A DNA stretch of 64,000 nucleotides from the NCBI GenBank assembly GCA_963705165.1, contig CAVPJD010000025.1:845-64844 (forward strand). Direction: 5' to 3'. This document shows, in pieces, positions 9,380-62,818 of this stretch. The stretch is from an uncultured delta proteobacterium (GTDB lineage: Bacteria > Desulfobacterota > Syntrophia > Syntrophales > UBA2192). Positions within the stretch are counted from its first letter, which is position 1; each line of letters starts with the position of its first letter. Under the pieces are notes generated by a model. It was not told the DNA's origin and ran no database searches. It saw nothing but the letters and a program-made list of their open reading frames with translations. Made by a program: the position numbers and the translations under genes.

Positions 9380-9452
9380 GGGTTTCGGGTATAGGACTTT
9401 ATGAAGAAATCCCTTTCATTCCCTGAACCCTTTACCCTGGACCCTGTACCCT
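9379..9452. repeat. heptamer arrays (GGGNNNN / CCCTNNN family)
   Basis: cgggttt cgggtat agg, a spacer, then ccctttc attccct gaaccct ttaccct ggaccct gtaccct. Confidence 0.7.
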
Positions 9453-13660: not shown

Positions 13661-13663
13661 TTT

Positions 13664-13698
13664 CCTGCCTGGACCCTGGACCCGGTACCCTGAACCCT
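13664..13698. repeat. heptamer array CCCTNNN family x5
   Basis: cctgcct ggaccct ggacccg gtaccct gaaccct. Ends 5 nt from the SDR stop codon. Confidence 0.7.
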
Positions 13699-14560: not shown

Positions 14561-14649
14561 GGGGTACAGGTTCGGGTCTCGGGTATCGGCGAAAGATAGA
14601 TTCCTGACCTTTCTTCCCTATACCCTATACCCTATACCCTGTTACCTAT
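14561..14649. repeat. opposed heptamer arrays (GGGNNNN / CCCTNNN)
   Basis: ggggtac aggttcg ggtctcg ggtatcg, a spacer, then cctttct tccctat accctat accctat accctgt tacctat. The right array overlaps the porB stop. Confidence 0.7.
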
Positions 14650-15551
14650 TTCGATTCCGCCGCCTTCCGCTTGTACTCCTCCCAGCGATCGTCCACCCAG
14701 TCCTGGAGCTGGCTGAGCTGCTCGATGCTCATTTTCTTGAACCGTCCCTGCTTCTCCACGTAGTGCACCACGGGGAGCTTGTTGCCCTTCTCGGCGAGCG
14801 TCTTGCTGCGGCCGGTGAAGCGGAACTTTCCGTTCTCCATCTCGAAGAGCACGCACAGGCCCGTGTCGACGGCAAGCCGGCCGATGCGGACCGTGTCCTT
14901 CGTGGGGTACTGCCACCCCGGGGGGCAGGGCGTGTGGATGTGGATGAACCGCGTGCCCTTGATCCGCTTGGCCCGCACGAACTTGTCGTAGAGATCGAGC
15001 GGGTAGGCCGGCGTCGTCGTGGCGATGTAGGCGATCTGATGGGCCTCCATGATCTTGAGGAAGTCCTTCTTGTGCTGCTGCTTCGTGAGGACGGGGGTCG
15101 TCGTCGTGAGGGCCCCCATGGGGGTTGCGCTCGATCGCTGGGTGCCCGTGTTCATGTAGCCCTCGTTGTCGTAGGCCACGTAGATGAAGTCCGTCCCGCG
15201 CTCGGCAGCGCCCGAGAGGGCCTGGATGCCCATGTCGAAGGTGCCCCCGTCGCCGGCGAAGGCCACGACGGTCGTGTCCGTCCGGTTCAGGGCGGCAAGC
15301 CCCGCCACGAGCCCCGAGGCCGAGGCGGCCGTGCTCGCGAAGGTGCAGTTCACGCTGGGCACCATGACCGGCGTCAGGGGGTAGAGCCCGTGAAGGACGC
15401 ACAGGCAGCAGGCGGGCAGCGTCACGATCGTGTTTTCCCTCAGCGCCTTCAGGGCGAAGCGGTAGGCGATGGAGAGCCCGCAGCCCTGGCAGGCCCGCGT
15501 GCCGGGAAGGATGTATTCTTTCTCGTGGATCTTGAAAAGATTCTGCGGCAT
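14646..15551 (-). CDS. porB: 2-oxoacid (pyruvate-type):ferredoxin oxidoreductase beta subunit (TPP-binding)
   Basis: 301 aa, MPQNLFKIHEKEYILPGTRACQGCG... and the GDGGTFDMG TPP motif. Last gene of a gamma-delta-alpha-beta operon. Confidence 0.85.
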   Translation of the reverse strand: MPQNLFKIHEKEYILPGTRACQGCGLSIAYRFALKALRENTIVTLPACCLCVLHGLYPLTPVMVPSVNCTFASTAASASGLVAGLAALNRTDTTVVAFAGDGGTFDMGIQALSGAAERGTDFIYVAYDNEGYMNTGTQRSSATPMGALTTTTPVLTKQQHKKDFLKIMEAHQIAYIATTTPAYPLDLYDKFVRAKRIKGTRFIHIHTPCPPGWQYPTKDTVRIGRLAVDTGLCVLFEMENGKFRFTGRSKTLAEKGNKLPVVHYVEKQGRFKKMSIEQLSQLQDWVDDRWEEYKRKAAESK

Positions 15552-17050: not shown

Positions 17051-17091
17051 GATGGGTCCCTCTACCTCTTCGTGGTCGATTCTGACTTCAC

Positions 17092-17233
17092 GGCATAAGG
17101 CTTAAGGCTAAGGGCTTAAGGTAAAAGGAAGGAGATGACCCTCGTTCTATTCTGTTCTTCACCATAAGCCATAAGCCTTATGCCCTATGCCATTCCTTAC
17201 TCGCCTTTTGCCTTAAGCCCCAAGCCTTACGCC
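17092..17233. repeat. opposed heptamer arrays filling the porG-porD spacer
   Basis: ggcataa ggcttaa ggctaag ggcttaa ggtaaaa ggaagga (17092..17133), a 30-nt spacer, then ten NNNNGCC units ataagcc ataagcc ttatgcc ctatgcc ... ttaagcc ccaagcc ttacgcc (17164..17233). Confidence 0.75.
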
Positions 17234-17793
17234 TTTCTATTTATGATCGTTCCCTCGTAGGCCGCGCGCACCGTCTCGAAGTTCTGCGATGCCACCGCCG
17301 CGGGGAGCTTGCTGCGAAGGGCCTTCTCGATGTTCTCCAGGGAGACGATCCCTGTGGCCTTCGCGAAGGCGCCCAGCAGCGGTGTGTTGATCACGGGGGC
17401 GCCTTCCTTCGTGAGACGAAGCTTGAGGGCAACGCCGGTGGCATCAACGGTGGCCACATCGAAATCGCCGCTGATGCCCGCGTCTTCCGGCTTGCAGGCG
17501 GTATTGATGATGATCGTCCCGCCCTTTCGGACCCGCCCCTTCACGTCGACGACGCCGAGGAGCGTGTCGTCCAGGACAATGGCGATATCGGCCATCTCGA
17601 CCTGGGAAAACATCCGGATGGGGTCCTTCGAAATCCGCGTCGATGCCGTGACGGGCGCCCCGCGCCTCTCAGGGCCGAAGGTCGGCGCCGAGGTGACGCC
17701 CTTGAAGCCCTCCAGGTATGCCGACTCCGCCAGGATCTGGGCTGCAACCACGGCGCCCTGACCGCCACGACCGAACCAGATGACTTCTTTCAT
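17227..17793 (-). CDS. porG: 2-oxoacid:ferredoxin oxidoreductase gamma subunit
   Basis: ORF trimmed to ATG 17793 (GGGAGGAG upstream): MKEVIWFGRGGQGAVVAAQILAE..., a typical gamma subunit. Confidence 0.8.
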   Translation of the reverse strand: MKEVIWFGRGGQGAVVAAQILAESAYLEGFKGVTSAPTFGPERRGAPVTASTRISKDPIRMFSQVEMADIAIVLDDTLLGVVDVKGRVRKGGTIIINTACKPEDAGISGDFDVATVDATGVALKLRLTKEGAPVINTPLLGAFAKATGIVSLENIEKALRSKLPAAVASQNFETVRAAYEGTIINRKA

Positions 17794-19585: not shown

Positions 19586-19662
19586 TACACTGTCAAGTTT
19601 GCATTATCAATTTTTCAAGCCTGGCGAGTCAACGGACGCACAGGGTCATGGGTTTGCACTAC

Positions 19663-19758
19663 GGCATAAGGCTTAGGGCATATGGCTCAGGGTAAGAATG
19701 GATTTTGCCTTTTGCCATGAGCCTTCTGCCCTAAGCCGTTTGGTTCGCCTTAAGCCAT
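19663..19758. repeat. opposed heptamer arrays in the waaA / lipoprotein divergent spacer
   Basis: ggcataa ggcttag ggcatat ggctcag ggtaaga, a 7-nt spacer, then ttgcctt ttgccat gagcctt ctgccct aagccgt ...gccttaagcc. Confidence 0.7.
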
Positions 19759-21385: not shown

Positions 21386-21400
21386 AGATGCGTCTACGAA

Positions 21401-21500
21401 CGTGAGAGGGTAAGAAGGTAAGAGGGTGAGAAAAGAGAATGGATGTTCTTCTTCCATTCGTTCTTACCTTCTCACGTTCTTACCCTCCCACCTTCTTCTC
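21401..21500. repeat. opposed heptamer arrays (GGTAAGA / TCTTACC family) between convergent rpe and the DHH gene
   Basis: cgtgagagggtaagaaggtaagagggtgagaaaagagaatgg, a spacer, then ttcttcttccattcgttcttaccttctcacgttcttaccctcccaccttcttctc. The right arm overlaps the DHH gene 3' end. Confidence 0.7.
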
Positions 21501-22595
21501 ATCAACGGGCGTCTCGACCGCTTCCGGCTTGCGCGGGCCGGCCGCTTCCTGGCTGAACGACAGCAGGTTCTGCGCCTTCATATCCTTTCGCTTGAGCGCC
21601 TTCAGAAACCTCGACACAAGGATGTCCGTCAGCTCCTGGTGGGAGTGGCGAGGATTCTCGCTCGAGGGGGCCTTCCCGCCGGCCATCATCTCATGTCCGC
21701 CTCCCGCCCCCAAGTCCGCTACCATCTTCTGGGCGATCCGGTCCGCCGACCCCCGCCTCTTCTTCGTCCGCAGCGAGAAATAGACATCCCCGACAAATTC
21801 GCCCAGCGACAGGACCCACTTGACGCCCTCCGTGCGGACGATGAGATCGGCCATCTCGGCGATGATCTCCAGGTGCTCCACGTGGCCCAGATCCAGTGTG
21901 ACCACGTCCTTGTAGAGCCGTGCGCTGCTGATAGCTTTCTGAAGCATGCTCAGGTAGTCCCGCGGGACCTCCGGGTACTCGATCTGCGATAGCAGCCGGA
22001 AGAGCACCCTGTTGTAGAAGTACATGCAGGCATCGATGTCCTTCGGGCTCACCCCGCGTCCCAGGTCGCGCGTGTCGGACCGGACCCCGTAGAGAAGTGC
22101 CGTGGCCACCTTGCGGTCTACCTCCACAATCCCGGCATCCCTCAAATACTCGGCGAGAATCGTCGAGGTGCTCCCATAATCGGTGCGGACGTCGTAAAAC
22201 TGGGCGAGGCGGGTCTTTGCCCGGAAAGGCAAGTGGTGATCGATGACGATGTCGGGGATGATGGATCTCGGAAGGGAGTTGTTCCCGGCGCCCGGTTGCG
22301 TGTCTACTAGGGCGATGACGCTGTAATTGTTGATGTTGATCTCGGAAAGGGCGCGGAGGTCGATCTTCAGGTGGCGGATCATGGCCCTGTTTTCGGCCCG
22401 CCCCACGACACCGCTGGATGCAATGATGCTTCCGACTTTCCACTTCGTCTGGAATAGGTATTTGAGGGCGAAAGCCGCGGCAAGCGCATCGGGATCGGGG
22501 TGATTGTGCGTGACAATCAGGACTTTCCGCTTTCCCCGGATGAGCTCGTGGAGTTTCTCGAGGCGGGTCTTGTTGTTTGTGTCGTTCTGACCCAT
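21480..22595 (-). CDS. DHH/DHHA1-family phosphoesterase
   Basis: 371 aa. VTHNHPDPDALAAAFAL, VIDHH motif, GGGHEMMAGG (DHHA1). Confidence 0.8.
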   Translation of the reverse strand: MGQNDTNNKTRLEKLHELIRGKRKVLIVTHNHPDPDALAAAFALKYLFQTKWKVGSIIASSGVVGRAENRAMIRHLKIDLRALSEININNYSVIALVDTQPGAGNNSLPRSIIPDIVIDHHLPFRAKTRLAQFYDVRTDYGSTSTILAEYLRDAGIVEVDRKVATALLYGVRSDTRDLGRGVSPKDIDACMYFYNRVLFRLLSQIEYPEVPRDYLSMLQKAISSARLYKDVVTLDLGHVEHLEIIAEMADLIVRTEGVKWVLSLGEFVGDVYFSLRTKKRRGSADRIAQKMVADLGAGGGHEMMAGGKAPSSENPRHSHQELTDILVSRFLKALKRKDMKAQNLLSFSQEAAGPRKPEAVETPVDEKKVGG

Positions 22596-22860
22596 GATTC
22601 CAGGGTGCCGTCAAAATATCAAAGCACCGGCCAATGAATCCTGTTTCCCCGATCCCGCAGGGAACGGCCCGAGGAGTTCATGCTTCGCCCCCGGTCCGCA
22701 TCCTTCGGGCCTCGAACCTGCGGCCTCGGCCGCCAAAGCGTAGGGGCGATTATAGGACTTCGGTTAGGAATGTCCACAACTATTTTATCGCCGCCGGAAC
22801 GGGTAAACTCTACATTTCAATCGCCTTGTAGCCACCGCTCAAGTGGGGTATTATAAATAT

Positions 22861-23025
22861 GGCATACGGCATATGGCTTAAGGAAACGGAAGAAAGAAAA
22901 GATCCGTTTTCCACTTTACGCCATTAGCCCTTTGCCCTCAGCCGATACAGTTGACAACGGGCGTAAGGCTAAAGGTAAGAAAGAAATATCCTGCCCTTTG
23001 CCTTTAGCCCTTAGCCCTAAGCCGG
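22861..23025. repeat. two successive opposed heptamer array pairs upstream of the NYN gene
   Basis: ggcatac ggcatat ggcttaa, then hairpin GGAAACGGA...TCCGTTTTCC, then gccatta gcccttt gccctca gcc. Then gcgtaaggctaaaggtaaga followed by ctgccct ttgcctt tagccct tagccct aagcc. Confidence 0.7.
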
Positions 23026-23032
23026 TTTTTAT

Positions 23033-25223: not shown

Positions 25224-25267
25224 CTTGCGTCTTTTGCCCTGGACCCTGGACCCTATACCCTGTACCC
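25224..25267. repeat. heptamer array, CCCTNNN family
   Basis: cttgcgt cttttgc cctggac cctggac cctatac cctgtac cc. Confidence 0.7.
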
Positions 25268-34726: not shown

Positions 34727-34888
34727 GGAGGAGGGGAGGAAGTTAAGAGGTTAAGAGGGTAAGAAGGTAAGAAGGTCGAAGAAGAGGAGGGAAAGAAGCT
34801 GAGAGGGTGAGAAGGTCGGACAGGCAGGGGGCCAGCGATTGACTGCCGGCTGATCCAACCTTCTTACCCTCTTACCCTCTCAACCTCT
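34727..34888. repeat. long purine-rich heptamer array (GGTAAGA family) with an opposed partner
   Basis: gggaggaggggaggaagttaagaggttaagagggtaagaaggtaagaaggtcgaagaagaggagggaaagaagctgagagggtgagaaggtcgg, a spacer, then ccaaccttcttaccctcttaccctctcaacctc. Confidence 0.7.
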
Positions 34889-34900
34889 GAATTGAAAGGA

Positions 34901-48230: not shown

Positions 48231-48259
48231 GATTCTCCTCCCGGTATGTGGACTGTTCT

Positions 48260-48343
48260 GGCATAGGGCTAATGGCTTATGGCTTATGGCAAGGGTGTTG
48301 CGGCTTTCTCTTCCTTAAGCCTTTAGCCCTGCGCCTTAAGCCC
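48260..48343. repeat. opposed heptamer arrays (GGCTTAT / CTTAAGC)
   Basis: ggcatag ggctaat ggcttat ggcttat ggcaagg, a 19-nt spacer, then cttaagc ctttagc cctgcgc cttaagc cc. Confidence 0.75.
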
Positions 48344-48344
48344 G

Positions 48345-48379
48345 TCTTTAAAATAAAAAAGTGGGCAAACAGGCCCACT
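48345..48379 (-). terminator. intrinsic terminator after the tartrate dehydrogenase-like gene
   Basis: Minus strand reads AGTGGGC-ctgttt-GCCCACT then TTTTTTATTTTAAAG. Confidence 0.6.
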
Positions 48380-48462: not shown

Positions 48463-49518
48463 TCACAGGGCCCCGGCAATCGCCTTGCCAAGCTCCTGCG
48501 TGCTGGCCCGGCCGCCGATGTCCCGCGTGCGCGGTCCCTCGGTGAGCACCGCTTCGATGGCGCGCACGATCGCGTCGGCCGCGGCCTTGTGTCCCAGGTG
48601 CTCCAGCATCAGTGCGCCGGACCAGATCTGGCCGATGGGGTTGGCGATGTTGCGCCCGTAGATGTCGGGCGCCGATCCGTGGACGGGCTCGAAGAGCGAC
48701 GGGTACTCGCGCTCCGGGTTGAGGTTGGCCGAGGGCGCTATGGCGATCGTACCGGTACAGGCCGGCCCGAGATCCGAGAGGATATCACCGAAGAGATTCG
48801 TGCCCACCACCACGTCAAACCAGTCGGGGTTCTGGACGAACTGGGCCGTGAGGATGTCAATGTGGTAGTAATCCGCCCGCACATCGGGGTACTGCGCGGC
48901 CATCGCCCGGGCCCGCTCGTCCCAGTAAGGCATCGAAATGTAGATCCCGTTCGATTTGGTCGCCCAGGTCAGGTGCTTCTTGGGCCTGCTGCGTGCAACC
49001 TCGAAGGCATAGCGCAGGATGCGGTCCACCCCGCGGCGGGTAAAGAGGCTCTCCTGCACCACCACCTCGCGATCGGTGCCTTCGAAGCTCCGCCCGCCGA
49101 TGGCGGAATACTCCCCTTCGGTGTTTTCGCGCACGACGACGAAGTCGATGTCGCCCGCCTCACGGCCGCGCAGGGGCGACTGGATCCCGGGCATCAGCCG
49201 CACCGGACGGACGTTGGCGTACTGCTGGAAGCCGCGTCGGATCGGGAGCAGCAGCCCCCATACGGAGATGTGATCCGGCACCCCCGGAAATCCCACGGCG
49301 CCCAGGTAGACGGCGTCGTGGTTGCGGATCTGATCGAGTCCGTCTTCGGGCATCATGCGACCGGTCTTTGCATAGTACTCACAGCTCCAGGGCAACTCAT
49401 CCCACTGAAACCCGATGTCGAATTTGGCCCCTGCGGCCTCCAGCACCCGGATGCCCTCCGGCATGACCTCTTTTCCGATCCCGTCGCCGGGAATGACTGC
49501 GATTTTATGTTTGATCAT
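48463..49518 (-). CDS. ttuC: tartrate dehydrogenase/decarboxylase (D-malate dehydrogenase) of the isocitrate/isopropylmalate dehydrogenase family
   Basis: ORF trimmed to ATG 49518: MIKHKIAVIPGDGIGKEVMPEGIRVLEAAG...WSCEYYAKTGRMMPEDGL...VPDHISVWGLLLPIRR...NLFGDILSD. Confidence 0.8.
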   Translation of the reverse strand: MIKHKIAVIPGDGIGKEVMPEGIRVLEAAGAKFDIGFQWDELPWSCEYYAKTGRMMPEDGLDQIRNHDAVYLGAVGFPGVPDHISVWGLLLPIRRGFQQYANVRPVRLMPGIQSPLRGREAGDIDFVVVRENTEGEYSAIGGRSFEGTDREVVVQESLFTRRGVDRILRYAFEVARSRPKKHLTWATKSNGIYISMPYWDERARAMAAQYPDVRADYYHIDILTAQFVQNPDWFDVVVGTNLFGDILSDLGPACTGTIAIAPSANLNPEREYPSLFEPVHGSAPDIYGRNIANPIGQIWSGALMLEHLGHKAAADAIVRAIEAVLTEGPRTRDIGGRASTQELGKAIAGAL

Positions 49519-49773
49519 CGGTTTGCTCCCGAAAGCGCGCCGCCCCGTTGCAATCAACCCGGAGCGATGGTTACCCGGGCCCGAACGATTGCGGAGACGG
49601 CGTGGAATGCTGGAAGTTTACAGCAGACGAAGAGAATTGGCAACCTGCAGATGATCTTGCACAAACGAGAGGCCTGATGCAGGATCAGGCCTTCTCGCTT
49701 TTGACAATGGAATAGGACCCGGGGATGCTCAATGAACTACCCCGCAGCGAGCGACGGGGTATCAAACAAGAAT

Positions 49774-49828
49774 GTCATGCCCGTGAAAACGGGCATCCAT
49801 CTTGGATTCCCTCATTCGAGGAAATGAC
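49774..49828. repeat. GTCAT...ATGAC double-hairpin palindromic element (subfamily A)
   Basis: gtcatgcccgtgaaaacgggcatccatcttggattccctcattcgaggaaatgac. Confidence 0.6.
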
Positions 49829-49916
49829 AAATTCGAAGCAAGCTTCGGGGAGTTGCACCCGTAGTGATTAAAAACAGGGACAAGGAGCAATACAGGCTCG
49901 GCGGGAAAGAGATCCT

Positions 49917-50753
49917 TTACCGGTCCGCCGGCTGGGTGTGCGCGGCGATGGCCCTGCGCAGCCCCTGGCCCAGGGCGTCGATCAGCGGCTCATGCAGGAT
50001 GCCGTTGTGCTCGTCCATGTAGACTTTGGCGATCTCCGTGGGAAGAACCAGGATACGTGAATCCCACCCTGTCAGGCGGCGGCAGAGCTCCCCTGCGCCC
50101 GAGAAAACCCTGTTTTCCTCCACGGTGGTGGCGATCCCCGGGATCTCGATCCTGCCCAGCTGATGCAGCCATGCATCGATGAGGCTGCCCCAGTGCGACC
50201 GATCGAGCAGCGCCGTTCCGAGATTGAACAGGGGAGGATTCGCGATTCCCTTTTCGACCTGGCGCGAAATATTGTACGAGTGGATGTCGTAGACGACGCA
50301 GAAACCGAAACGCTCCAGCAGAAAACAAATACAGCTGCCGGCAAATCGGTAAAACGCCTCGTGCTTCGCCAGCGATCGACGTTTCATGTCTTCCGGTAGG
50401 GCGGTGCGGTAGACCTGCACGCCCCAGAACTGCCCCGGTTTCAGCGGCAGGGCCTCCTCGGCCGGGCGATTCAGATCGTACTCGGCCCTCGAGTCCAGCC
50501 CCCAGATTGCGTTTGCATTCCCCCGGATCATCCGGTCGGTCGCCGGGTCCTCTTCGAAAAGGCGCTCTTTTTCCGGGATCTGCATCAGGGGAAGCAGTTC
50601 CTCGCGGACGCTGTGCCCGGCATGGATGGCCACAACGAGCGCCGGCGTCGACAGATCCAGATCGAAGGCGAACCCGCCGGTCGCACTTCTCCCCTGGAGC
50701 CGCTTCGCGCTCCGGAGCTTTTCAATGATTTCGGGATCGCATGGAATGCTCAT
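49917..50753 (-). CDS. N-formylglutamate amidohydrolase (FGase)-family hydrolase
   Basis: 278 aa. ...ALVVAIHAGHSV..., SRAEYDLNRP (the SRxxxDxNR signature) and VVYDIHSY (DxHS). Confidence 0.7.
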   Translation of the reverse strand: MSIPCDPEIIEKLRSAKRLQGRSATGGFAFDLDLSTPALVVAIHAGHSVREELLPLMQIPEKERLFEEDPATDRMIRGNANAIWGLDSRAEYDLNRPAEEALPLKPGQFWGVQVYRTALPEDMKRRSLAKHEAFYRFAGSCICFLLERFGFCVVYDIHSYNISRQVEKGIANPPLFNLGTALLDRSHWGSLIDAWLHQLGRIEIPGIATTVEENRVFSGAGELCRRLTGWDSRILVLPTEIAKVYMDEHNGILHEPLIDALGQGLRRAIAAHTQPADR

Positions 50754-50842
50754 AAGGATTGTCGGGTTTGCTGAACTCTTATTACGGGAAGCAACAAATA
50801 ACGCGCCTGTCGGACATGAAGAATGGTCACCCTTGACACGAT

Positions 50843-50904
50843 GTCATTCCCGCGAAGGCGGGAATCCATATTAGTGCTGGATTCCGGGTCAAGCCCGGAA
50901 TGAC
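50843..50904. repeat. GTCAT...ATGAC double-hairpin palindromic element (subfamily A)
   Basis: gtcattcccgcgaaggcgggaatccatattagtgctggattccgggtcaagcccggaatgac. Confidence 0.65.
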
Positions 50905-50962
50905 AAATGTCCTTTTACAAGACCATCATTACACGGCCTGAGCAATGACCACCTGAGCAACA

Positions 50963-51958
50963 CTATGTGCGTTCGTGGATCCCGTACCGCTCGAGTGCGG
51001 AATGCACGATCAGGTGGAGCATGTTCCGGTATTCCTCCATGGGTCCGCCCGCGGCAGGGTGATAGAGCGAATAGATCTGGGGGCTCCAGCTCTTCACGGG
51101 CTTGAGGCCCGGAATCCCGTTGACCTCCATGACCCGCAAGCGTCCTTGCGCGTCCACGCGCATGTCGACCCGGACGTGGTCCCAGCACTTCAGGGCATCG
51201 GTTGCCTTCCTGGTCAGCTCCTTGGCCTCCTCCGCCCTGTCCGTCGGGATGCTGATCTTGGTCAGCCCCACTCCACGGAGATCGCTGCGCAGGATCTGAT
51301 GCCTGCCGAAATGGTTCTTGTCGACGGTGACAAGCCCGGGCAGGATTTCCTGCAGCCTCCCGTTGCCCAGCATCAGGACCGTGTATTCCTCTCCGGGAAG
51401 AAACTCCTCGATGAGTGCGGCCTGCTCGAGCTTTTCGTGCACGTACCGGACGCGCTGCGCCATCTCCTCCCGGTTGTGGACCACGCTGTCGTCGCTGATG
51501 CCGACGGAGCGCGATTCGCAGTTGGGCTTGACGAAGGCCGGGTACGCCACTTCCGGCAGCGCATCGCCTGCGGCCACAAGGGTGAAGGCCGGCACCAGCA
51601 CCCCGTTTTCATGCATGATCCGGTGCGTCTCGTATTTCTGAATCAGCTGCTTCATCGTCAGGGCGTTTGGGCCGATGTACGGGATGCCCTTCTCGTCGAG
51701 AATATCGGCGACCCATTCAATGTCGTTGCCGAGACCGATGATGTCCTCGCGGTATGAAAAATAGTACAGGGCGCTCCAGACGATATCGTAGCTGCGGCTC
51801 GAGAGTGCCTTCATGAAGTCTTCCGTGGTCACGCAATAGGCAATCTCGGCCGCCAGATCCCCGCCATTGAGGGTCTCGCACATCGTCTCGGTCACCTTCA
51901 TGTCGCCCCACCCCTGGGCATCGCCGCCGGGGCCCGTTACGATCAACACCTTCCTCAT
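50963..51958 (-). CDS. ATP-grasp ligase of the D-alanine--D-alanine ligase family
   Basis: ORF trimmed to ATG 51958 (AAGGAGAG upstream): MRKVLIVTGPGGD...GIPYIGPNALTM...YPAFVKPNCESRSVGIS...EEFLPGEEYTV...MEVNGIPGL. Confidence 0.75.
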   Translation of the reverse strand: MRKVLIVTGPGGDAQGWGDMKVTETMCETLNGGDLAAEIAYCVTTEDFMKALSSRSYDIVWSALYYFSYREDIIGLGNDIEWVADILDEKGIPYIGPNALTMKQLIQKYETHRIMHENGVLVPAFTLVAAGDALPEVAYPAFVKPNCESRSVGISDDSVVHNREEMAQRVRYVHEKLEQAALIEEFLPGEEYTVLMLGNGRLQEILPGLVTVDKNHFGRHQILRSDLRGVGLTKISIPTDRAEEAKELTRKATDALKCWDHVRVDMRVDAQGRLRVMEVNGIPGLKPVKSWSPQIYSLYHPAAGGPMEEYRNMLHLIVHSALERYGIHERT

Positions 51959-51975
51959 CCCGTCTCTCCTTGCCG

Positions 51976-52881
51976 TCAAAAAGTGAACAAATCCGGATCG
52001 TGCCGGTACTGTCTCAATGCGCTGGCCGTAAGGGGTGATTTAGCTTCCAGAAGCCGGGCGATCGCCTCGATCTTTTCATCGCTCCAGACGATGCGCGAGA
52101 CAACCTCCAGGTCGATCCGGACGCCCTGATACCCCTGGGGGCACTCGGTAAGCAGCGCGGCACTCATCGCCTTGTTGGGATCGAGAATCGTGATCGGGCC
52201 CTCGAAGACGGACTGCAGAGCGGCCTCGAAGATGCGCTGACTGTACCCGTAATGCGTACAACACAGAGCCGCCGCAACGGGCCGACACCTGTCCGGAACA
52301 CGCTCGGCTGCCTGGCGGATGCAGCTCTCGATCATCGTCCGGACGGTTGCACCTTCCGGTGCCTTCTCGATTTCGCCCGCCAGTCGATCGCAGGGCTGGC
52401 AGATGATGCGTTCCGCGGCAATGCCCCGCCCGACAAGGCGCGTTCGATGGGTATCAGCTTCGATGGTGGTGGGTGTGCCGAGAATGATGACGAGGCTGTC
52501 CGCCCGGGTGCTTAAATACGCGTGTATCAGGTCGACGCCGGAATCGATGATGCCGACCACCGGCACGGGGGCCTGCTTGCTGAACGGCGTGTGGGCATAG
52601 AGCGCCGACAGGGTATTGCAGGCGATCAGGATCAGATCGGGCTGAAAGCGAAGCATGGCGGCAAGCGCCCGGTCGAAGACGCGGATCCGCTCGGCCATGC
52701 CGGACAGAAGATTGTAGCCGCGGTCCTGCTCCGGCCAGGCGTTGAAGTAGGTCACCGCCACGGACCGGCACGTCCGGCGTTCCTGCAGGCCGCTGACGAT
52801 GTCTGCGCAAATGGAGAGGCCGCCCATGCCCGAGTCGGCGATGACAATCGACAGCGTGTCCTTGGAGCCCGCTGCGTTCAT
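51976..52881 (-). CDS. glutamate racemase-like (Asp/Glu racemase family) protein
   Basis: 301 aa. SIVIADSGMGGLS, and both catalytic Cys contexts LIACNTLSA and LCCTHYGY. Confidence 0.8.
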   Translation of the reverse strand: MNAAGSKDTLSIVIADSGMGGLSICADIVSGLQERRTCRSVAVTYFNAWPEQDRGYNLLSGMAERIRVFDRALAAMLRFQPDLILIACNTLSALYAHTPFSKQAPVPVVGIIDSGVDLIHAYLSTRADSLVIILGTPTTIEADTHRTRLVGRGIAAERIICQPCDRLAGEIEKAPEGATVRTMIESCIRQAAERVPDRCRPVAAALCCTHYGYSQRIFEAALQSVFEGPITILDPNKAMSAALLTECPQGYQGVRIDLEVVSRIVWSDEKIEAIARLLEAKSPLTASALRQYRHDPDLFTF

Positions 52882-52882
52882 C

Positions 52883-54190
52883 TCACCGCACTCCCCCCGC
52901 TGGCCGCTTTCGCGTCAGCCATTCGGCGGCCAGGTCGAGGGCCCATTGCGGCGAGGCATCGATGGTCCCGTCCATGATCCGGGTCATGGCATCGATCCAG
53001 TGCTCCCGGTGCTGCATGGTCGCGATGCGATTGCGCAGCATGGCGGCGCCCTTGGCCGGCTCCTGATCCATCTTTGCCAGGATCATCGCGATCTCGTCGC
53101 GAAAACCCTTGAGCCCGTAATACCGCAGAAATCCGTGCCAGGCATCGGCAATGCCCTCCGGTTGAGCCAGCGGCAGGGAGACCTTCTTCAGGGACTCGAA
53201 GAACAGCGCCGATTCATCCCCATGGAGCAGACGGAGACATTCGGAGCCGATTTCATAAGGAATGAGTTCGATGTGCGCAAGGCCCGCCCGCGAGACCCCG
53301 GCCTTCACGAGATATCCCAGCTTGCGGTAGTAGAGGTCGGTCTCCTGGTAGAAGACGAAGTTCCCCAGGCTGTAGCAGATCGGCACTCCGTTGCAGATCT
53401 CGACGCCCTGCGGAACGTGGGCGTGATGTCCGACGATCAGATCGGCCCCGGCATCGGCGATGCGCCGGAAGGCCTCTGCCAGGTAGGGCGGCGGAAAGGG
53501 GATGTATTCGACCCCTCCGTGAAAGATCACGAGGATGACGTCAACCTCCGGCCTGATCGCACGGACGCTGTCCACGACGGCGTCGACGTCCCATCCGAAT
53601 ACCCCGGGCCCGGAGACGGCGGCAGTCAAATCCTCGCCTTCGCTGAAATTGATGATGCCGATGCGGACCCCCTTGAGATCGAGGATCAGGGGCCGGCGGG
53701 CCTCCTCGGCAGACATGCCCGCCCCGACGGAACGGATGGAGTTCTCGCTCAGCAGATTCAGGGTCTGGCGGAAGGCCTCCGGTCCGTAATCGAAGACATG
53801 ATTGTTTGCCAGTATGACGACCTCGAAAGGCACCGAGGTCAACCCGTTGATATGCTCAGGACGTCCTTTAAAGACCGAGCCGCTCTTCCATACCGGGGAT
53901 GCGTCTCCGGAAAGCGCGCATTCCAGATTGACGATGCGAAGATCATTCTGGCGCAGGAGCGGCAACACGTCGCCGTAGACCGCCTCGGGAGAATGCGCAA
54001 CGATCTCGTCGAAGGCCCGGATGGGCGCCCAGTCGGAGGCGATTACGATTTCGGCCTGGGCCCGGGGAACCGCTGCGTTCACCCATCGGCCCCTGCTCCA
54101 GTCAAACCCTTCCAGTCCGGTTTTTTTCATCCTCGTGCTCTCGGATCTGAACTCTGTTTCTCGCCCCGCACTCCCGGGAACCCCCTTCAT
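52883..54190 (-). CDS. CapA/PgsA-family (PGA_cap metallophosphatase-fold) protein
   Basis: 435 aa. ...LRIVNLECALSG..., VDVILVIFHGGVEY, GADLIVGHHAHVPQG, YSLGNFVF. The stop is 1 nt from the racemase start. Start uncertain (ATG 54190 or 54130). Confidence 0.8.
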   Translation of the reverse strand: MKGVPGSAGRETEFRSESTRMKKTGLEGFDWSRGRWVNAAVPRAQAEIVIASDWAPIRAFDEIVAHSPEAVYGDVLPLLRQNDLRIVNLECALSGDASPVWKSGSVFKGRPEHINGLTSVPFEVVILANNHVFDYGPEAFRQTLNLLSENSIRSVGAGMSAEEARRPLILDLKGVRIGIINFSEGEDLTAAVSGPGVFGWDVDAVVDSVRAIRPEVDVILVIFHGGVEYIPFPPPYLAEAFRRIADAGADLIVGHHAHVPQGVEICNGVPICYSLGNFVFYQETDLYYRKLGYLVKAGVSRAGLAHIELIPYEIGSECLRLLHGDESALFFESLKKVSLPLAQPEGIADAWHGFLRYYGLKGFRDEIAMILAKMDQEPAKGAAMLRNRIATMQHREHWIDAMTRIMDGTIDASPQWALDLAAEWLTRKRPAGGVR

Positions 54191-54553
54191 CGAAGCCGGA
54201 TGAATGCTGAAAAGACACCGCTTTTTGACGTGCGGAGTATAGGATGCACATTCGCACGTGTCAACGGAACAATTGCCGCGAATCCGCCGGGATCAGGCCG
54301 GATTCTCCCTGGACGCTCATCCGGAGCGGAATGCAGACACCACCGAAGACATGGGCTTCCGCATGTCGTCACTACGAGGGCATCCACCCATATCCGACGA
54401 CATCTGGGCACAGTCGTTAACGAATCCTGCCACGCGCATCCATCCGCAGGAAAAATGTTAAGGCAACGGTATGGTCGCCGTGAACTGGAGATCGACGATG
54501 AGGCTAAGCGTAGATTCTATTGGGGTTCCGCCTGGGGGTGGGTTGTTCGGTAC

Positions 54554-54682: not shown

Positions 54683-55499
54683 ATGTCTTCGATGAAGCAT
54701 GATGAGTTTTTCCGCAAACACCCTGTTTTCACCGGCGAGGAGTTGGCCGCGCATTTGGCGGCCCTCGGTGAGGTCGGCAAAAGGGGGCAGGAGGCGCTCC
54801 TGGCCTACTACCAGAAGGACCGGGCGGGTTGTTCGGGTGCGGCGCGGATTGTATGCAGTCATACCGGCAGGAGCCAGCCCCGGTTCCTATCCGGTCGACC
54901 CCTTCCTCATAGCCGCAAAACTGACCACGGATGCGTTCCTGTCGCACCATACGGCGCTCGAGTTTCACGGGCGGGCTTATTCGGTTCAGGAACGCTTCAT
55001 ATACACGGCTTCCCGCCCGCTGGGACGCCTGATGTTCCGCACTCATGTTTTCCGGGGAGCAAAGTTTCCACAGGTGCTTCACCGCGCGGGAAAAGAGAGT
55101 TTCGGTGTTTTGACCGCCGAGCGCGCCGGCATGGAGCTACGGGTCACCAGTCTGGAGCGGACCTTGGTGGACGTCCTGAATCGCCCGGACCTTTCGGGAA
55201 GCTGGGAGGAAATCTGGCGGTCGCTGGAATCCGTCGAATTCTTCGATCTCGACAAGGTCGTGGAGTACGCGCTCCTGCTTGAAAATTCGACCACCGGGGC
55301 AAAGGTGGGATTCTTTCTCGAACAGCACCGGGAACCTTTGATGGTGGAGGACCGTCATCTCAAGGCGCTTCACGATCTGCGGCCTCGGCAACCTCATTAT
55401 CTGGACCGCGCCAAGCGAATATCCGGCCGTCTTGTGTCGGAATGGAACCTGGTGGTTCCCAGGGAAGTGCTCGAGCGGGCGTGGGGGGAAGTATTATGA
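54683..55499 (+). pseudogene. abiEi: type IV toxin-antitoxin AbiEi-family antitoxin, apparent frameshift near codon 48
   Basis: N-terminus in ORF 54683.. (MSSMKHDEFFRKHPVFTGEELAAHLAALGEVGKRGQEALLAYYQK). The rest is in ORF 54699..55499 (GRVVRVRRGLYAVIP...DPFLIAAKL...AFLSHHTALEFHG...). An extra G near 54826 separates the frames. Confidence 0.75.
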
Positions 55500-56467
55500 A
55501 AATCTCCCTTGAAAAGCTGACAGCCGAAGCGGAGGCGACCGGATTCAGACTGGACGTGCTCGAAAAGGTCGCCCACTTGCTTCGATTGCTCGATGCCATT
55601 CAAAGCCACCCCTTTCTCAAAGGAAAGCTGGTCCTCAAGGGAGGGACGGCTTTGAACCTTTTCGTCTTCGATGTCCCGCGGCTCTCTGTTGACATCGATC
55701 TGAACTACGTGGGAGCCGCAGATCGTGAAACCATGCTCGCCGAGCGTCCCAAGTTGGAGCAGGCCGTTCAGGCGGTCTTTGCGCGGGAGGGCTTCAAGGT
55801 CAGGCGGATGCCAGAGGAACACGCCGGAGGCAAGTGGTCGCTGCGATATGAGAGCGCACCCGGCCGAACCGGGAACCTCGAAGTGGATCTCAACTTCATG
55901 TTCCGCGTCCCGTTGTGGCCGGTAACAACTTCCGACTCTCATCCCGTCGGGGCGTGGCAGGCCAAAGGGATTTCGGTGTTGGATCGCCATGAACTGGCAG
56001 CCGGAAAACTTGCTGCTCTACTGGGGCGCCGACAGGCAAGGGACGTATTCGACAGTCATCGGATCCTCCGGATGGACAACCTCGATCCTCATTTGCTACG
56101 AATCGGATTTGTCGTCTACGGCGCCATGAACAGGAAAGATTGGAGGACGGTCTCTGCCGAAGATGTTGATATCGACGGCGCGGAGCTGGCCAGGCAGTTG
56201 ATCCCCACGTTGCGCATCAACGCGACAGAGGTCCATGCGAAATCGGTAGAATACGGGGGGCGCCTCGTAAGAGAGTGCCGGGAGGGTCTATCCGCGGTGC
56301 TGCCCTTCACGGACTCCGAACGGGCATTCCTGGATATGCTTTTGGACCGGGGGGTGATCGACTCGACTATCCTGACTGCCGATGCATCCCTCCAGAAGCG
56401 CATACAGGACCAGCCGCTTCTCGAATGGAAAGCCCTCAATGTGCGGCGTCATAAGGGATTGTCCTGA
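55496..56467 (+). CDS. abiEii: AbiEii/AbiGii-family nucleotidyltransferase toxin (DUF1814)
   Basis: ORF trimmed to ATG 55496, which overlaps the abiEi stop (ATGA): MKISLEKLTAEAEATGFRLDVLEKVAHLLRLLDAIQSHPFLKGKLVLKGGTALNLF...SVDIDLNY. Confidence 0.85.
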   Translation: MKISLEKLTAEAEATGFRLDVLEKVAHLLRLLDAIQSHPFLKGKLVLKGGTALNLFVFDVPRLSVDIDLNYVGAADRETMLAERPKLEQAVQAVFAREGFKVRRMPEEHAGGKWSLRYESAPGRTGNLEVDLNFMFRVPLWPVTTSDSHPVGAWQAKGISVLDRHELAAGKLAALLGRRQARDVFDSHRILRMDNLDPHLLRIGFVVYGAMNRKDWRTVSAEDVDIDGAELARQLIPTLRINATEVHAKSVEYGGRLVRECREGLSAVLPFTDSERAFLDMLLDRGVIDSTILTADASLQKRIQDQPLLEWKALNVRRHKGLS

Positions 56468-56893: not shown

Positions 56894-56968
56894 TGGAGCG
56901 GGCGATGGGATTCGAACCCACGACTTTCAGCTTGGGAAGCTGACATTCTGCCACTGAATTACGCCCGC
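56894..56968 (-). tRNA. tRNA-Gly (anticodon CCC) with encoded CCA
   Basis: Minus strand reads gcgggcg ta attc agtggca gaat g tcagc ttCCCaa gctga aagtc gtggg ttcgaat cccat cgcccgc t cca. Full cloverleaf, 75 nt. Confidence 0.9.
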
Positions 56969-59977: not shown

Positions 59978-60858
59978 TTATAATAAATTTTTCCGCCGCG
60001 CAATCACCACCCGATCGAGGCCGGCGTAGTCGGCCCGGAAACGGATGTCATCGAAGATCTTTGTCTCTTCCAGAATCATTGTGAGGGCCAAACGCTGCTC
60101 CGCCCCCATCTCCATGAGGAGCCACCCGCCGGGCTTGAGCCTCTCCCGCGCCCCTTCAGCGATGCGGCGGTGGAACTCGGTCCCCTCGGGCCCCGCCACA
60201 AGGGCCTGACGCGGCTCGTAGAGCGTCACCTCGCGGGCCAGTGTCGCGTACTCGGCCTCGCTGATGTAGGGCGGGTTGGAGCAGACCATGTCGAAGCCCC
60301 CTCGACACCCTCGTAGAGATCGCCCTGCAGAAAGGTGATTCTTGTGTCCGGGCCGAGGAGTCTCTTGGCATTTTCGCGGGCCACCTCGAGGGCGGCTGCC
60401 GAAAGTTCCGTTGCCGCTATATCGCAGTCGGGCCATTCCGACGCCACGGCAATGCAGACGGCGCCCGAGCCCGCCCCGATGTCCAGGATCCGGGGGCTCG
60501 AGCCGCGGAACAAGTCACGGAGCCTCAGCACTTCCTCGACAAGGCACTCTGTCTCGGGTCTCGGAACGAGCACGGCAGGGGTTACGGTGAAATCGAGGGA
60601 CCAGAACTCGCGCCAGCCCCGGATGTAGGCCATGGGCTCACGGCGCTTGCGCCTCCCGGTCAGCACGAGGACCCGGTTGATCTGCTCGTCGTCAAGCTCG
60701 AGCGAGAGGTCCCGGTACAGATCGGCGCGTTCCTTGCCAAGGCAGAAACCGAGCAGGACCTCGGCATCGAGCCGCGGGGTTTCGATGCCCGCCCTTTCGA
60801 ATACCTCGGTGAGGCGGGAGAGAATCCGGGCGATGGAGCGTTTGTCTTCCCCTGACAT
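59978..60858 (-). CDS. prmC: release-factor glutamine N5-methyltransferase PrmC, apparent frameshift in a G/C homopolymer
   Basis: N-terminal part from ORF 60226..60885 (start probably ATG 60858; ...ILDIGAGSGAVCIAVA...). C-terminal part from ORF 59978..60436 (FDMVCSNPPYI...). The junction GDLYEGVEG/FDMVCSNPPY lies at the C5 run 60297..60301. Confidence 0.85.
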
Positions 60859-60938
60859 TCCCTGATCCTTTCGAGCACCTGACACCGGTTGTACACGGGG
60901 TTATCGATGGAAGATACCGTCTGCCCAGGAAAACTAAT

Positions 60939-62724: not shown

Positions 62725-62818
62725 CCGGATTCAGGATTCCGGATTCGGGCTTTGGAAGAATTCTTCGCTCCTTCTGCCCCTGTACCCTGGACCCTTAACC
62801 CTTTACCCTGGCCCCTCC
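62725..62818. repeat. opposed heptamer arrays directly 3' of the rho stop; the right arm has six C-tracts (G-tracts on the sense strand)
   Basis: ccggatt caggatt ccggatt cgggctt tgg, palindrome GAAGAATTCTTC, then ccttctg cccctgt accctgg accctta acccttt accctgg cccctcc. Confidence 0.75.

Follow-up and report, generated by a model that had tools for sequence, protein, structure and literature searches.

A conserved operon encoding a Ddl-fold ATP-grasp ligase, a MurI-like racemase, a CapA-like protein and an FGase-like hydrolase in anaerobic bacteria

A gene cluster containing four genes was identified at positions 49917-54190 of a 64,000-nucleotide stretch of DNA from an uncultured bacterium of the Syntrophales (assembly GCA_963705165.1, contig CAVPJD010000025.1), which as a whole is referred to here as the window. 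The genes encode a CapA-like protein of the PGA_cap family, a MurI-like racemase, an ATP-grasp ligase with the fold of D-alanine-D-alanine ligase (Ddl) and a hydrolase of the N-formylglutamate amidohydrolase (FGase) family. The four genes form one operon, which extends from a promoter at about 54264-54236 to a hairpin at about 49692-49670, and they are a unit rather than a chance neighbourhood. The cassette is tentatively read as a cytoplasmic module that makes a small D-glutamate-containing amide or dipeptide, and that includes an epimerase and a hydrolase for recycling. Its substrates, reaction order and physiological role are predicted here from the families, folds, residue conservation, gene order and distribution described below; possible roles of the product are those of a compatible solute, a storage compound, a signal or a precursor.

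Conservation and distribution of the gene cluster

The ligase was used as the query in a scan of GTDB with one genome per species. Relatives were found in 287 of 185,579 species genomes, scattered over at least five phyla of anaerobes. In a protein collection, 1175 relatives of the ATP-grasp protein were found, and the best 120 of these are all at least 60% identical. Ligase identity across phyla is 56-95%, and such high values fit a specialised module that was probably spread horizontally.

Gene neighbourhoods were analysed at the best 80 of the 287 loci, and genes were counted by tblastn at the 41 loci that have at least 5 kb of flanking DNA on both sides. About 54 of the best 80 loci are of the Desulfobacterota type (Syntrophales, Desulfobacterales and Desulfomonilia), whereas 12 are of the Lentisphaerae type, 4 belong to Holophagaceae, 4 to Verrucomicrobiota/Kiritimatiellia and 2 to Spirochaetota. 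The carriers are anaerobes of sediments, digesters and guts, with syntrophs and sulfate reducers among them, and one cultured carrier, Desulfosarcina alkanivorans PL12, is present among the best 80 loci.

A CapA-like gene lies beside the ligase gene in 40 of the 41 loci, and the same number of loci (40/41) contain the racemase gene. In 38 loci the three genes share one strand and fall within 4 kb, and the FGase gene is present in 20. The core of the cassette is the racemase and the ligase, nearly always accompanied by the CapA-like gene, and the FGase gene is a frequent accessory. Co-occurrence of the genes beyond one genome had been set as a test in a preliminary description of this DNA, and the counts for the CapA-like and racemase genes, which come from several phyla, establish it. 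The Pfam annotations of independent contigs show the order PGA_cap, Asp_Glu_race, Dala_Dala_lig_C and FGase in Syntrophales, in a Desulfomonilia-like lineage and in Lentisphaerae. Smaller versions also occur. A Holophaga-type contig contains the CapA-like, racemase and ligase genes alone among unrelated neighbours, and a Kiritimatiellia contig contains only the racemase and ligase genes. Apparent fusions of the CapA-like and racemase genes, for example an open reading frame (ORF) of 1228 amino acids in locus L039, were rejected as artefacts that arise in GC-rich DNA, where reading frames contain few stop codons; the tblastn matches of the two genes lie in different frames.

Enzymes encoded by the cassette

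The ligase gene occupies 50963-51958 on the minus strand, counted from its ATG (a TTG-extended version of the ORF reaches 51979), and encodes a protein that matches PF07478 (Dala_Dala_lig_C) at 4.8e-21. The sequence matches of this protein in the PDB are Ddl and Van ligases only, with an identity of 17-23%. The AlphaFold2 (AF2) model has a predicted local distance difference test score (pLDDT) of 90.7, and its 50 best fold matches in the PDB are Ddl or VanA without exception, with template modelling (TM) scores of 0.63-0.82 over about 335 columns. Alignment by hhalign with E. coli DdlB, for which a query sequence identical to PDB 1iov/2dln was used, gave a probability of 98%. The full Ddl fold of the model and this alignment bear out the earlier assignment of the ligase as a Ddl-type ATP-grasp enzyme. 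It is not an ordinary Ddl, since it falls below the NCBIfam cut-offs (91.6 bits with the best Ddl model against a cut-off of 243; 80 bits with TIGR01205 against 245.65) and has arginine at two positions of the substrate triad. When the locus DNA examined was searched with E. coli DdlB by tblastn, only the cassette ligase was matched, at 24-32% identity.

The DdlB residues K144, R255, D257, E270 and N272 are kept in the ligase as K144, R263, D265, E278 and N280, respectively, and are invariant in the family. In the profile alignment, S150 of DdlB is replaced by the invariant R150 and Y216 by the nearly invariant R224, and K286 and K289 of the ligase are invariant as well. L282 of DdlB, which like S281 is part of the second D-Ala site, probably corresponds to W291. 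In our own reading of the motifs, the DdlB segment GGTSAEREVS, which carries the E15 motif, would correspond to an invariant PGGDAQGWGD, and the E15 motif appears to be absent. The alignments thus suggest a substrate site that differs from that of Ddl and is more basic, which would fit an acidic substrate.

The CapA-like gene (52883-54190, minus strand) encodes a soluble protein with a calcineurin-like fold that matches PF09587 (PGA_cap) at 1.6e-59, with 201.9 bits against a cut-off of 27 and over profile positions 7-255 of 255. The only solved relative detected by sequence is MslH (PDB 8gq9), the epimerase of the C-terminal Trp of a lasso peptide. MslH is a Ca-dependent epimerase of the C-terminal residue of a peptide, and its key residues are D11, E44, N87, H88, D91, H259, H261 and H295; of these, His88/Asp91 and His295/Asp11 form the two dyads, and Glu44, Asn87, His259 and His261 are the metal ligands (PMC10406935). 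The CapA-like protein keeps seven of the eight, as D53, E89, N130, H131, D134, H224 and H258, and these are conserved in the family. The remaining residue, H261, aligns with a glycine within the PGA_cap motif HxGxE, and an invariant glutamate follows two residues on. The score with the MslH equivalog model NF038314 is 67.6 bits against a cut-off of 700.

The highest mean Kyte-Doolittle hydrophobicity over 19 residues is 1.33 in the CapA-like protein, and among 45 family members the maximum is 1.72 and the median 1.36. No membrane helix is predicted in any of the four cassette proteins, and none of them has a 19-residue stretch at the hydrophobicity usual for a membrane helix. The conserved residues make a putative epimerase of the MslH type a better reading of the CapA-like protein than a capsule component. 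Lasso-peptide genes were not found beside the CapA-like gene in related loci. When the small ORFs upstream of the CapA-like gene were searched by tblastn, all matches came from close relatives within Syntrophales, in which the DNA of this region is itself conserved. No candidate precursor emerged from them. A cluster for a ribosomally synthesised and post-translationally modified peptide with an MslH-type epimerase was rejected for now, on the grounds that these small-ORF matches are confined to close relatives and that the ligase is not of the RimK or graspetide type.

The racemase gene (51976-52881, minus strand) encodes a two-cysteine racemase or epimerase that matches PF01177 (Asp_Glu_race) at 8.6e-10, and all of its PDB matches are glutamate racemases. 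The motifs DSGxGG (DSGMGG in this protein), ACNT (IACNT), GTxxT and CTHY (CTHYG) are invariant in 56 family members, so both catalytic cysteine motifs noted earlier, IACNT and CTHYG, are present and fully conserved. The protein falls below the equivalog cut-offs, with 48.4 bits against 146.65 for TIGR00067 and 44 bits against 328 for the PRK00865 model, and is accordingly not a canonical MurI. It is predicted to be a racemase or epimerase of glutamate or of a close analogue.

The FGase gene (49917-50753, minus strand) encodes a putative metal amidohydrolase that matches PF05013 at 1.2e-15, with 58.7 bits against a cut-off of 28.9. The AF2 model has a pLDDT of 93.2; its best fold match is the N-formylglutamate amidohydrolase 2q7s (TM 0.70), and zinc carboxypeptidases follow in the fold search with TM below 0.45. 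The protein has no match in NCBIfam, and no hut genes were found in the window or in the related loci. The FGase-like protein is predicted to be an N-acyl-glutamate-type amidase and an optional member of the operon. The family calls made earlier were correct for all four proteins, each of which lies above its Pfam gathering cut-off in the HMM check.

Additional genes associated with the cassette in other lineages

Clustering of the flanking ORFs revealed two more recurrent genes, which lie directly upstream of the cassette in many lineages and encode an alanine racemase and a class IV aminotransferase. The former was found in 21 of the 41 loci (TIGR00492, 382 bits against a cut-off of 168) and the latter in 23, and neither gene is present in the window. 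All six genes are also found together in two Spirochaetota loci, where their order is permuted (ligase, FGase, aminotransferase, alanine racemase, CapA-like, racemase), which argues that the linkage is functional rather than inherited. The classical indirect route to D-Glu consists of alanine racemase and D-amino-acid aminotransferase. For producers of poly-gamma-glutamate (PGA), a review lists two suppliers of D-Glu, namely glutamate racemase and D-amino-acid aminotransferase (PMC3815933). The proposal in the preliminary description that the cassette uses D-Glu gains support from the alanine racemase and class IV aminotransferase co-encoded elsewhere, which resemble these suppliers.

A longer arrangement is present in locus L088 (1-11862) and in about 15 other Desulfobacterales loci. 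One strand carries genes for a transketolase, a GntR/UTRA regulator, an atypical transaldolase-like protein of 399 amino acids and an alanine dehydrogenase, and continues with a HisC-like aminotransferase, the class IV aminotransferase and the alanine racemase, after which the cassette follows. Short gaps separate the genes of the stretch that begins with the transaldolase-like gene and ends with the FGase gene. The alanine dehydrogenase scores above its equivalog cut-off. A CbiZ amidohydrolase was considered as a substitute for the FGase-like enzyme and rejected; in L088 it is part of a downstream uptake cluster of the TonB/BtuFCD type.

GNAT acetyltransferase domains also recur beside the cassette, in several lineages. 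Some are fused to a coenzyme A (CoA)-transferase, some to a nucleoside-diphosphate-forming acyl-CoA synthetase, and some stand alone; they were seen in loci L024 (11052-12905), L020 (12345-13895), L034, L073, L052, L067, L069, L080 and L082, and in L004 (4666-5517). These neighbours hint at N-acylation within the same pathway. No exporter, transporter or peptidase recurs beside the cassette in the related loci examined, and the recurrent neighbours in those loci include neither mur genes nor other genes for the cell wall.

Operon structure

The four ORFs are all on the minus strand and lie at the positions given in the preliminary description, and the spacings reported there (1, 17 and 209 nucleotides) are exact. 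A sigma-70-like promoter, TTGACA-17-TATACT, with 11 of 12 consensus matches, is located on the minus strand at 54236..54264. Both of its hexamers, and the spacer for the most part, are unchanged across eight Syntrophales genomes (the window, 54236-54264, and loci L001, L006, L007, L008, L010, L013 and L015), the proteins of which differ by 10-25%. A palindrome of the type GCGCA-N2-TGCGC lies between the -35 and -10 hexamers and is invariant in the same eight genomes; it may be the operator for some regulator. An Rfam scan for a riboswitch or leader upstream of the genes found none, and its sole match, which was below threshold, fell on the repeat element described below.

The ATG of the CapA-like gene at 54190 is not conserved in the alignment of Syntrophales relatives, and the median length of the family is 416 amino acids; the true start is therefore probably at 54130 (M21), which gives a protein of 415 amino acids. 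As read from the sequence, the stop codon of the CapA-like gene is followed after 1 nucleotide by the ATG of the racemase gene, and that of the racemase gene after 17 nucleotides by the ATG of the ligase gene, which is preceded by the ribosome-binding site AAGGAGAG. The spacer of 209 nucleotides between the ligase and FGase genes contains, at about 50843-50913, a palindromic double hairpin that resembles a repetitive extragenic palindrome (REP-like element); the preliminary description had noted a palindromic element in this spacer. In relatives close to the window, such as locus L006, the same spacer has about 20 nucleotides and lacks the element, so the 209-nucleotide spacer represents an inserted element and not an operon boundary.

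A second copy of the REP-like element, recognised in a repeat search, lies past the FGase gene at about 49775-49840. The two copies form an inverted pair of 27 nucleotides that are 85% complementary, and the downstream copy has diverged. Since the copies sit on either side of the FGase gene, they bracket this gene alone, and the description of the whole cassette as lying between repeat elements does not hold. The region 50833-50930, read on the plus strand, gives a weak Rfam match to the Francisella small RNA FtrB (33 bits against a gathering score of 66), which is probably due to chance. A terminator-like hairpin with a stem of nine pairs, five of them GC pairs, and a T-rich tail is present on the minus strand at 49670..49692, and it probably ends the operon ahead of a gene of the tartrate-dehydrogenase family.

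Proposed pathway and alternative explanations

In the first step of the proposed pathway, the MurI-like racemase would produce the D-form of Glu, or of a close analogue, from the L-form. Other lineages may serve this step by an indirect route, in which alanine racemase would convert L-Ala to D-Ala and the class IV aminotransferase would form D-Glu from D-Ala and 2-oxoglutarate. The Ddl-fold ligase would then phosphorylate a carboxylate and couple it to an amine, giving a small product, either an N-acyl-amino acid or a dipeptide, in which one or more residues would be acidic and of the D-form; R150 and R224, in place of the Ser and Tyr of DdlB, would bind the extra carboxylate or carboxylates. 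In the third step, the CapA-like protein, as a metal-dependent enzyme of the MslH type, would epimerise the residue of this product that bears the free alpha-carboxylate. In the fourth, the FGase-like enzyme would hydrolyse the N-acyl-Glu-type amide bond, in turnover or recycling. The ligase, the CapA-like protein and the FGase-like protein are expected to act on one kind of compound, an amino acid that is N-acylated and has its alpha-carboxylate free. Ddl-fold ligases make such compounds, MslH-type enzymes remove the alpha-proton beside a free terminal carboxylate, and FGase enzymes hydrolyse N-acyl-glutamate. The minimal loci with only the racemase and the ligase favour a racemase that feeds the ligase, as in the aslA-racD operon, which encodes a racemase and an ATP-grasp ligase for the D-Asp cross-bridge (PMC4155827).

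Several observations weigh against this pathway. A ligase and a hydrolase that act on the same bond and are encoded in one operon would run a futile cycle if they were neither regulated nor specific for different stereoisomers. The loop of the racemase at the 'PYG' region of MurI differs, so that Glu is not certain as its substrate. By comparison with NCBIfam and the PDB, the class IV aminotransferase resembles archaeal branched-chain enzymes about as closely as it does D-amino-acid transaminases. In gut Lentisphaeria, the ligase occurs with neither a racemase nor a CapA-like gene within 10 kb. The arrangement in Desulfobacterales, where the cassette follows a GntR/UTRA regulator and is accompanied by an alanine dehydrogenase, looks catabolic.

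A capsule or PGA locus was considered and rejected. The absence of capB and capC nearby, which had been asserted earlier, extends to the ORFs of the window scanned between 18 and 64 kb and to the recurrent neighbours in the 80 related loci, and together with the lack of predicted membrane segments and of an exporter it shows that the cassette is not a PGA capsule locus. The preliminary description had proposed the synthesis and trimming of a peptide or polymer. The polymer or capsule part of that proposal is not upheld, since all the proteins are soluble and no exporter is conserved, and trimming would be an optional activity, the FGase gene being present in about half of the loci. A related possibility, which is quite unlikely, is that the Ddl-like enzyme is an ATP-grasp synthetase of oligo- or poly-(gamma-)D-glutamate-like peptides that stands in for PgsB, with the CapA-like protein in the role of PgsA (epimerisation of residues in the chain) and the FGase-like protein as depolymerase. 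The pairing of a synthetase with a hydrolase is usual for such polymers, as in pgs with pgdS and cphA with cphB. Three of the four families have links to glutamate or PGA, D-Glu supply enzymes are co-encoded, and the invariant R150, K286 and K289 and the nearly invariant R224 could hold a substrate with several carboxylates. An ATP-grasp PGA synthetase is in fact predicted in a review of PGA for organisms without pgs/cap genes (PMC3815933). However, PgsC, a membrane anchor on the CapA-like protein and an exporter are all missing, the ligase occurs in some genomes without a CapA-like gene, and its top structural matches are all dipeptide ligases. To our knowledge, the characterised enzymes of the Ddl fold make single amide or ester bonds and not polymers.

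A serious, if unlikely, rival is salvage by ATP-driven stereoinversion. A carrier acid, for example Ala, would be attached by the ligase to D-Glu in its free form or to some other D-amino acid taken up from the debris of peptidoglycan; inversion of the C-terminal residue by the CapA-like enzyme and release of L-Glu by the FGase-like enzyme would follow. Alanine racemase, aminotransferase and alanine dehydrogenase would, in the same unlikely event, funnel the nitrogen and carbon of D-Ala and D-Glu to pyruvate and 2-oxoglutarate. A parallel is the recycling of murein peptides in E. coli by MpaA, YcjG and PepD. Cleavage of N-acyl-Glu by FGase enzymes agrees with such a cycle, as do the HutC/PhnF-like GntR/UTRA regulator and the alanine dehydrogenase of Desulfobacterales, which are frequent in catabolic operons, and the sediment, digester and gut habitats, which offer D-amino acids from dead cells. 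MslH works on a C-terminal residue (PMC10406935), and a DgcN-DgcA route that converts D-Glu to L-Glu is mentioned in PMC10845958. The gene content fits the cycle less well: about half of the loci lack the FGase gene, which the cycle needs, some lack the CapA-like gene, and neither a transporter nor a peptidase is conserved. A racemase of free amino acids in the same operon would, moreover, make the cycle redundant, and the outlay of ATP on catabolism would be costly to energy-limited syntrophs.

It is very unlikely that the D-amino acid is added to a larger acceptor, either a peptidoglycan precursor, as by AslA with D-Asp, or the terminus of a protein or peptide, with the CapA-like and FGase-like enzymes editing that terminus. 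An operon of a racemase and an ATP-grasp enzyme has its precedent in the D-Asp cross-bridge (PMC4155827), MslH epimerises the C-terminus of a ribosomal peptide, and the FGase fold is distantly related to zinc carboxypeptidases. The upstream small ORFs, however, provide no candidate precursor, and the cassette genes are almost contiguous. Cell-wall genes, including mur genes, are not among the recurrent neighbours, and the murA gene of the window is about 4 kb upstream of the cassette. The carriers are diderm bacteria, which, as far as is known, cross-link their peptidoglycan directly through meso-diaminopimelate.

Least credence of all is given to a housekeeping role, in which the genes would be a divergent alr-murI-ddl operon that supplies peptidoglycan synthesis. 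Alanine racemase, MurI-like and Ddl-like genes do occur together, and the locus DNA examined contains no canonical ddl or murI. Against this stand the scores on the NCBIfam Ddl and MurI models (92 bits against 243 for the ligase and 48 against 146.65 for the racemase), the arginines at two positions of the Ddl substrate triad and the missing E15 motif. Relatives of the ligase occur in just 287 of the 185,579 species genomes, scattered over phyla and at least 56% identical between them, as fits a specialised module that has probably spread horizontally, and a housekeeping role would leave the CapA-like and FGase-like genes unexplained.

The synthesis of a small D-Glu-containing compound remains the preferred reading of the cassette. 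A further idea, which is doubtful, is that of a cytoplasmic machine for peptide stereochemistry, in which the Ddl-fold ligase and a metal-dependent epimerase of the CapA/MslH type would act on the same small D-glutamyl compound. The cassette would then be one of two things. It could be the long-predicted ATP-grasp pathway by which organisms that lack PgsB and PgsC make gamma-glutamyl oligomers, or else a one-way cycle of L/D stereoinversion that is driven by ATP and proceeds through ligation, epimerisation and hydrolysis. If this is true, the large PGA_cap family would be general epimerases of N-acyl-amino acids, and a D-amino-acid metabolite would be common in the anaerobic bacteria of sediments, digesters and guts.

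D-amino-acid metabolism beyond the cell wall is poorly mapped in anaerobes. Once the product of the cassette is known, functions could be given to four subfamilies that are now annotated as 'D-alanine-D-alanine ligase', 'CapA family', 'glutamate racemase' and 'N-formylglutamate amidohydrolase', or as hypothetical. It would also test whether PGA_cap proteins are generally epimerases, as MslH suggests, and could bring to light either a new metabolite of the D-glutamyl type or, within the carbon and nitrogen cycles of anoxic habitats, a new way in which D-amino acids from peptidoglycan are recycled. The cultured carrier, Desulfosarcina alkanivorans PL12, makes the question testable.

Flanking regions of the cassette

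The genes abiEi and abiEii (54699-56467) adjoin the cassette upstream, with PADLOC matches of 3.5e-105 and 1.1e-111, and a tRNA-Gly(CCC) gene lies beyond them at 56894-56968; the tRNA-linked AbiE islet that had been described next to the cassette is thus present. A defence system, which the AbiE neighbours suggested, was rejected, as none of the four cassette proteins matches a PADLOC model. Past the tRNA-Gly gene are hisD and murA, as read from ORF translations, followed by a split prmC, prfA and rho. The murA gene is thereby separated from the cassette by the AbiE genes, the tRNA gene and hisD. The prmC gene (59978-60885, minus strand) appears to be divided between two overlapping ORFs in different frames, of which 60226-60885 encodes PrmC_N and the start of the methyltransferase domain and 59978-60436 the NPPY motif; the split reflects either a frameshift or a sequencing error.

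In two related loci (L008 and L010), the ORF clustering shows ORFs of a size similar to that of the AbiE genes upstream of the CapA-like gene, and other carriers have genes for a DUF4143 ATPase or HEPN/MNT proteins beside the cassette. With such neighbours, the cassette tends to occupy variable regions.

Downstream, the cassette is directly followed, here and in close relatives, by the tartrate-dehydrogenase-family gene (48463-49557, minus strand; TIGR02089, 553 bits). In loci of the Desulfomonilia type, a homologue is found at a distance of a few genes (the loci compared were L001, L006, L002 and L016). A functional link of this gene with the cassette is possible; in the window the terminator-like hairpin separates them. 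The genes rimP, nusA and infB, read from translations, come next, and the close relative L001 has the same downstream gene order by Pfam. Further downstream are genes for a DHH protein, truB, pnp, an M16 peptidase gene, a homocysteine-biosynthesis gene and pilus-assembly genes.

Short arrays with a period of 7 nucleotides (types GCCTTWW, ACCCTRK and GGTAAGA) are present in many intergenic regions of the window, often as inverted pairs that face each other. They were found at 17090-17241, 19661-19745, 22852-23031, 48258-48350, 21389-21503 and 34730-34891, and also at 9416-9451, 13662-13697, 14611-14656, 25232-25267 and 62779-62811. These arrays look like a genome-wide repeat family.

Comparison with known systems

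No description of the cassette was found in the literature searched, and its parts can be compared with several characterised systems. Like PgsBCA/CapBCA, it includes a PGA_cap family protein, a link to D-Glu supply (glutamate racemase, and alanine racemase with class IV aminotransferase in related loci) and a co-encoded hydrolase. It differs from them in lacking the Mur-ligase-type PgsB/CapB, PgsC/CapC, the CapA anchor and export; its sole ligase is a Ddl-fold ATP-grasp enzyme, and all of its components are predicted to be cytoplasmic. The CapA-like protein shares with MslH the calcineurin-like fold and equivalents of D11, E44, N87, H88, D91, H259 and H295, and both are soluble proteins of about 415-440 amino acids. 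Unlike MslH, it matches the equivalog model at 59-68 bits against the cut-off of 700, has Gly in place of H261 and is not associated with lasso genes or a precursor, and its predicted substrate is a small ligase product rather than a 42-residue peptide.

The AslA-RacD (Aslfm-Racfm) pair resembles the cassette in that a racemase of the Asp/Glu family and an ATP-grasp carboxylate-amine ligase are co-encoded, and in that an acidic D-amino acid is made and ligated, as predicted for the cassette. The cassette is distinguished by the Ddl fold of its ATP-grasp enzyme, a MurI-like racemase, the extra CapA-like and FGase-like genes and carriers that are Gram-negative anaerobes. With DdlB, VanA and VanC (the last with VanT and VanXY), it has in common the ligase fold, the residues for ATP, Mg and the transition state, and the logic of an operon of racemase, ligase and hydrolase. 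In contrast to these ligases, the E15/S150/Y216 triad is lost, with Arg at S150 and Y216, identity is 17-23%, and there is neither a dcw context nor a link to resistance.

The FGase-like protein has the family (PF05013), the fold (2q7s, TM 0.70) and the conserved His, Asp and Glu motifs of HutG, whereas identity is about 20%, hutH, hutU and hutI are absent, and the predicted substrate is not N-formyl-Glu but the product of the ligase, in whose operon the gene is optional. The logic of inverting an N-acylated D-Glu and then hydrolysing it would be shared with MpaA-YcjG-PepD and with DgcN-DgcA; those systems use unrelated enzyme families (GNAT and racemase, or an epimerase of the enolase superfamily), and acylation by the cassette would cost ATP. 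Racemase-coupled ATP-grasp ligation of D-amino acids is already known, and what appears to be new is this widespread arrangement of known kinds of enzymes.

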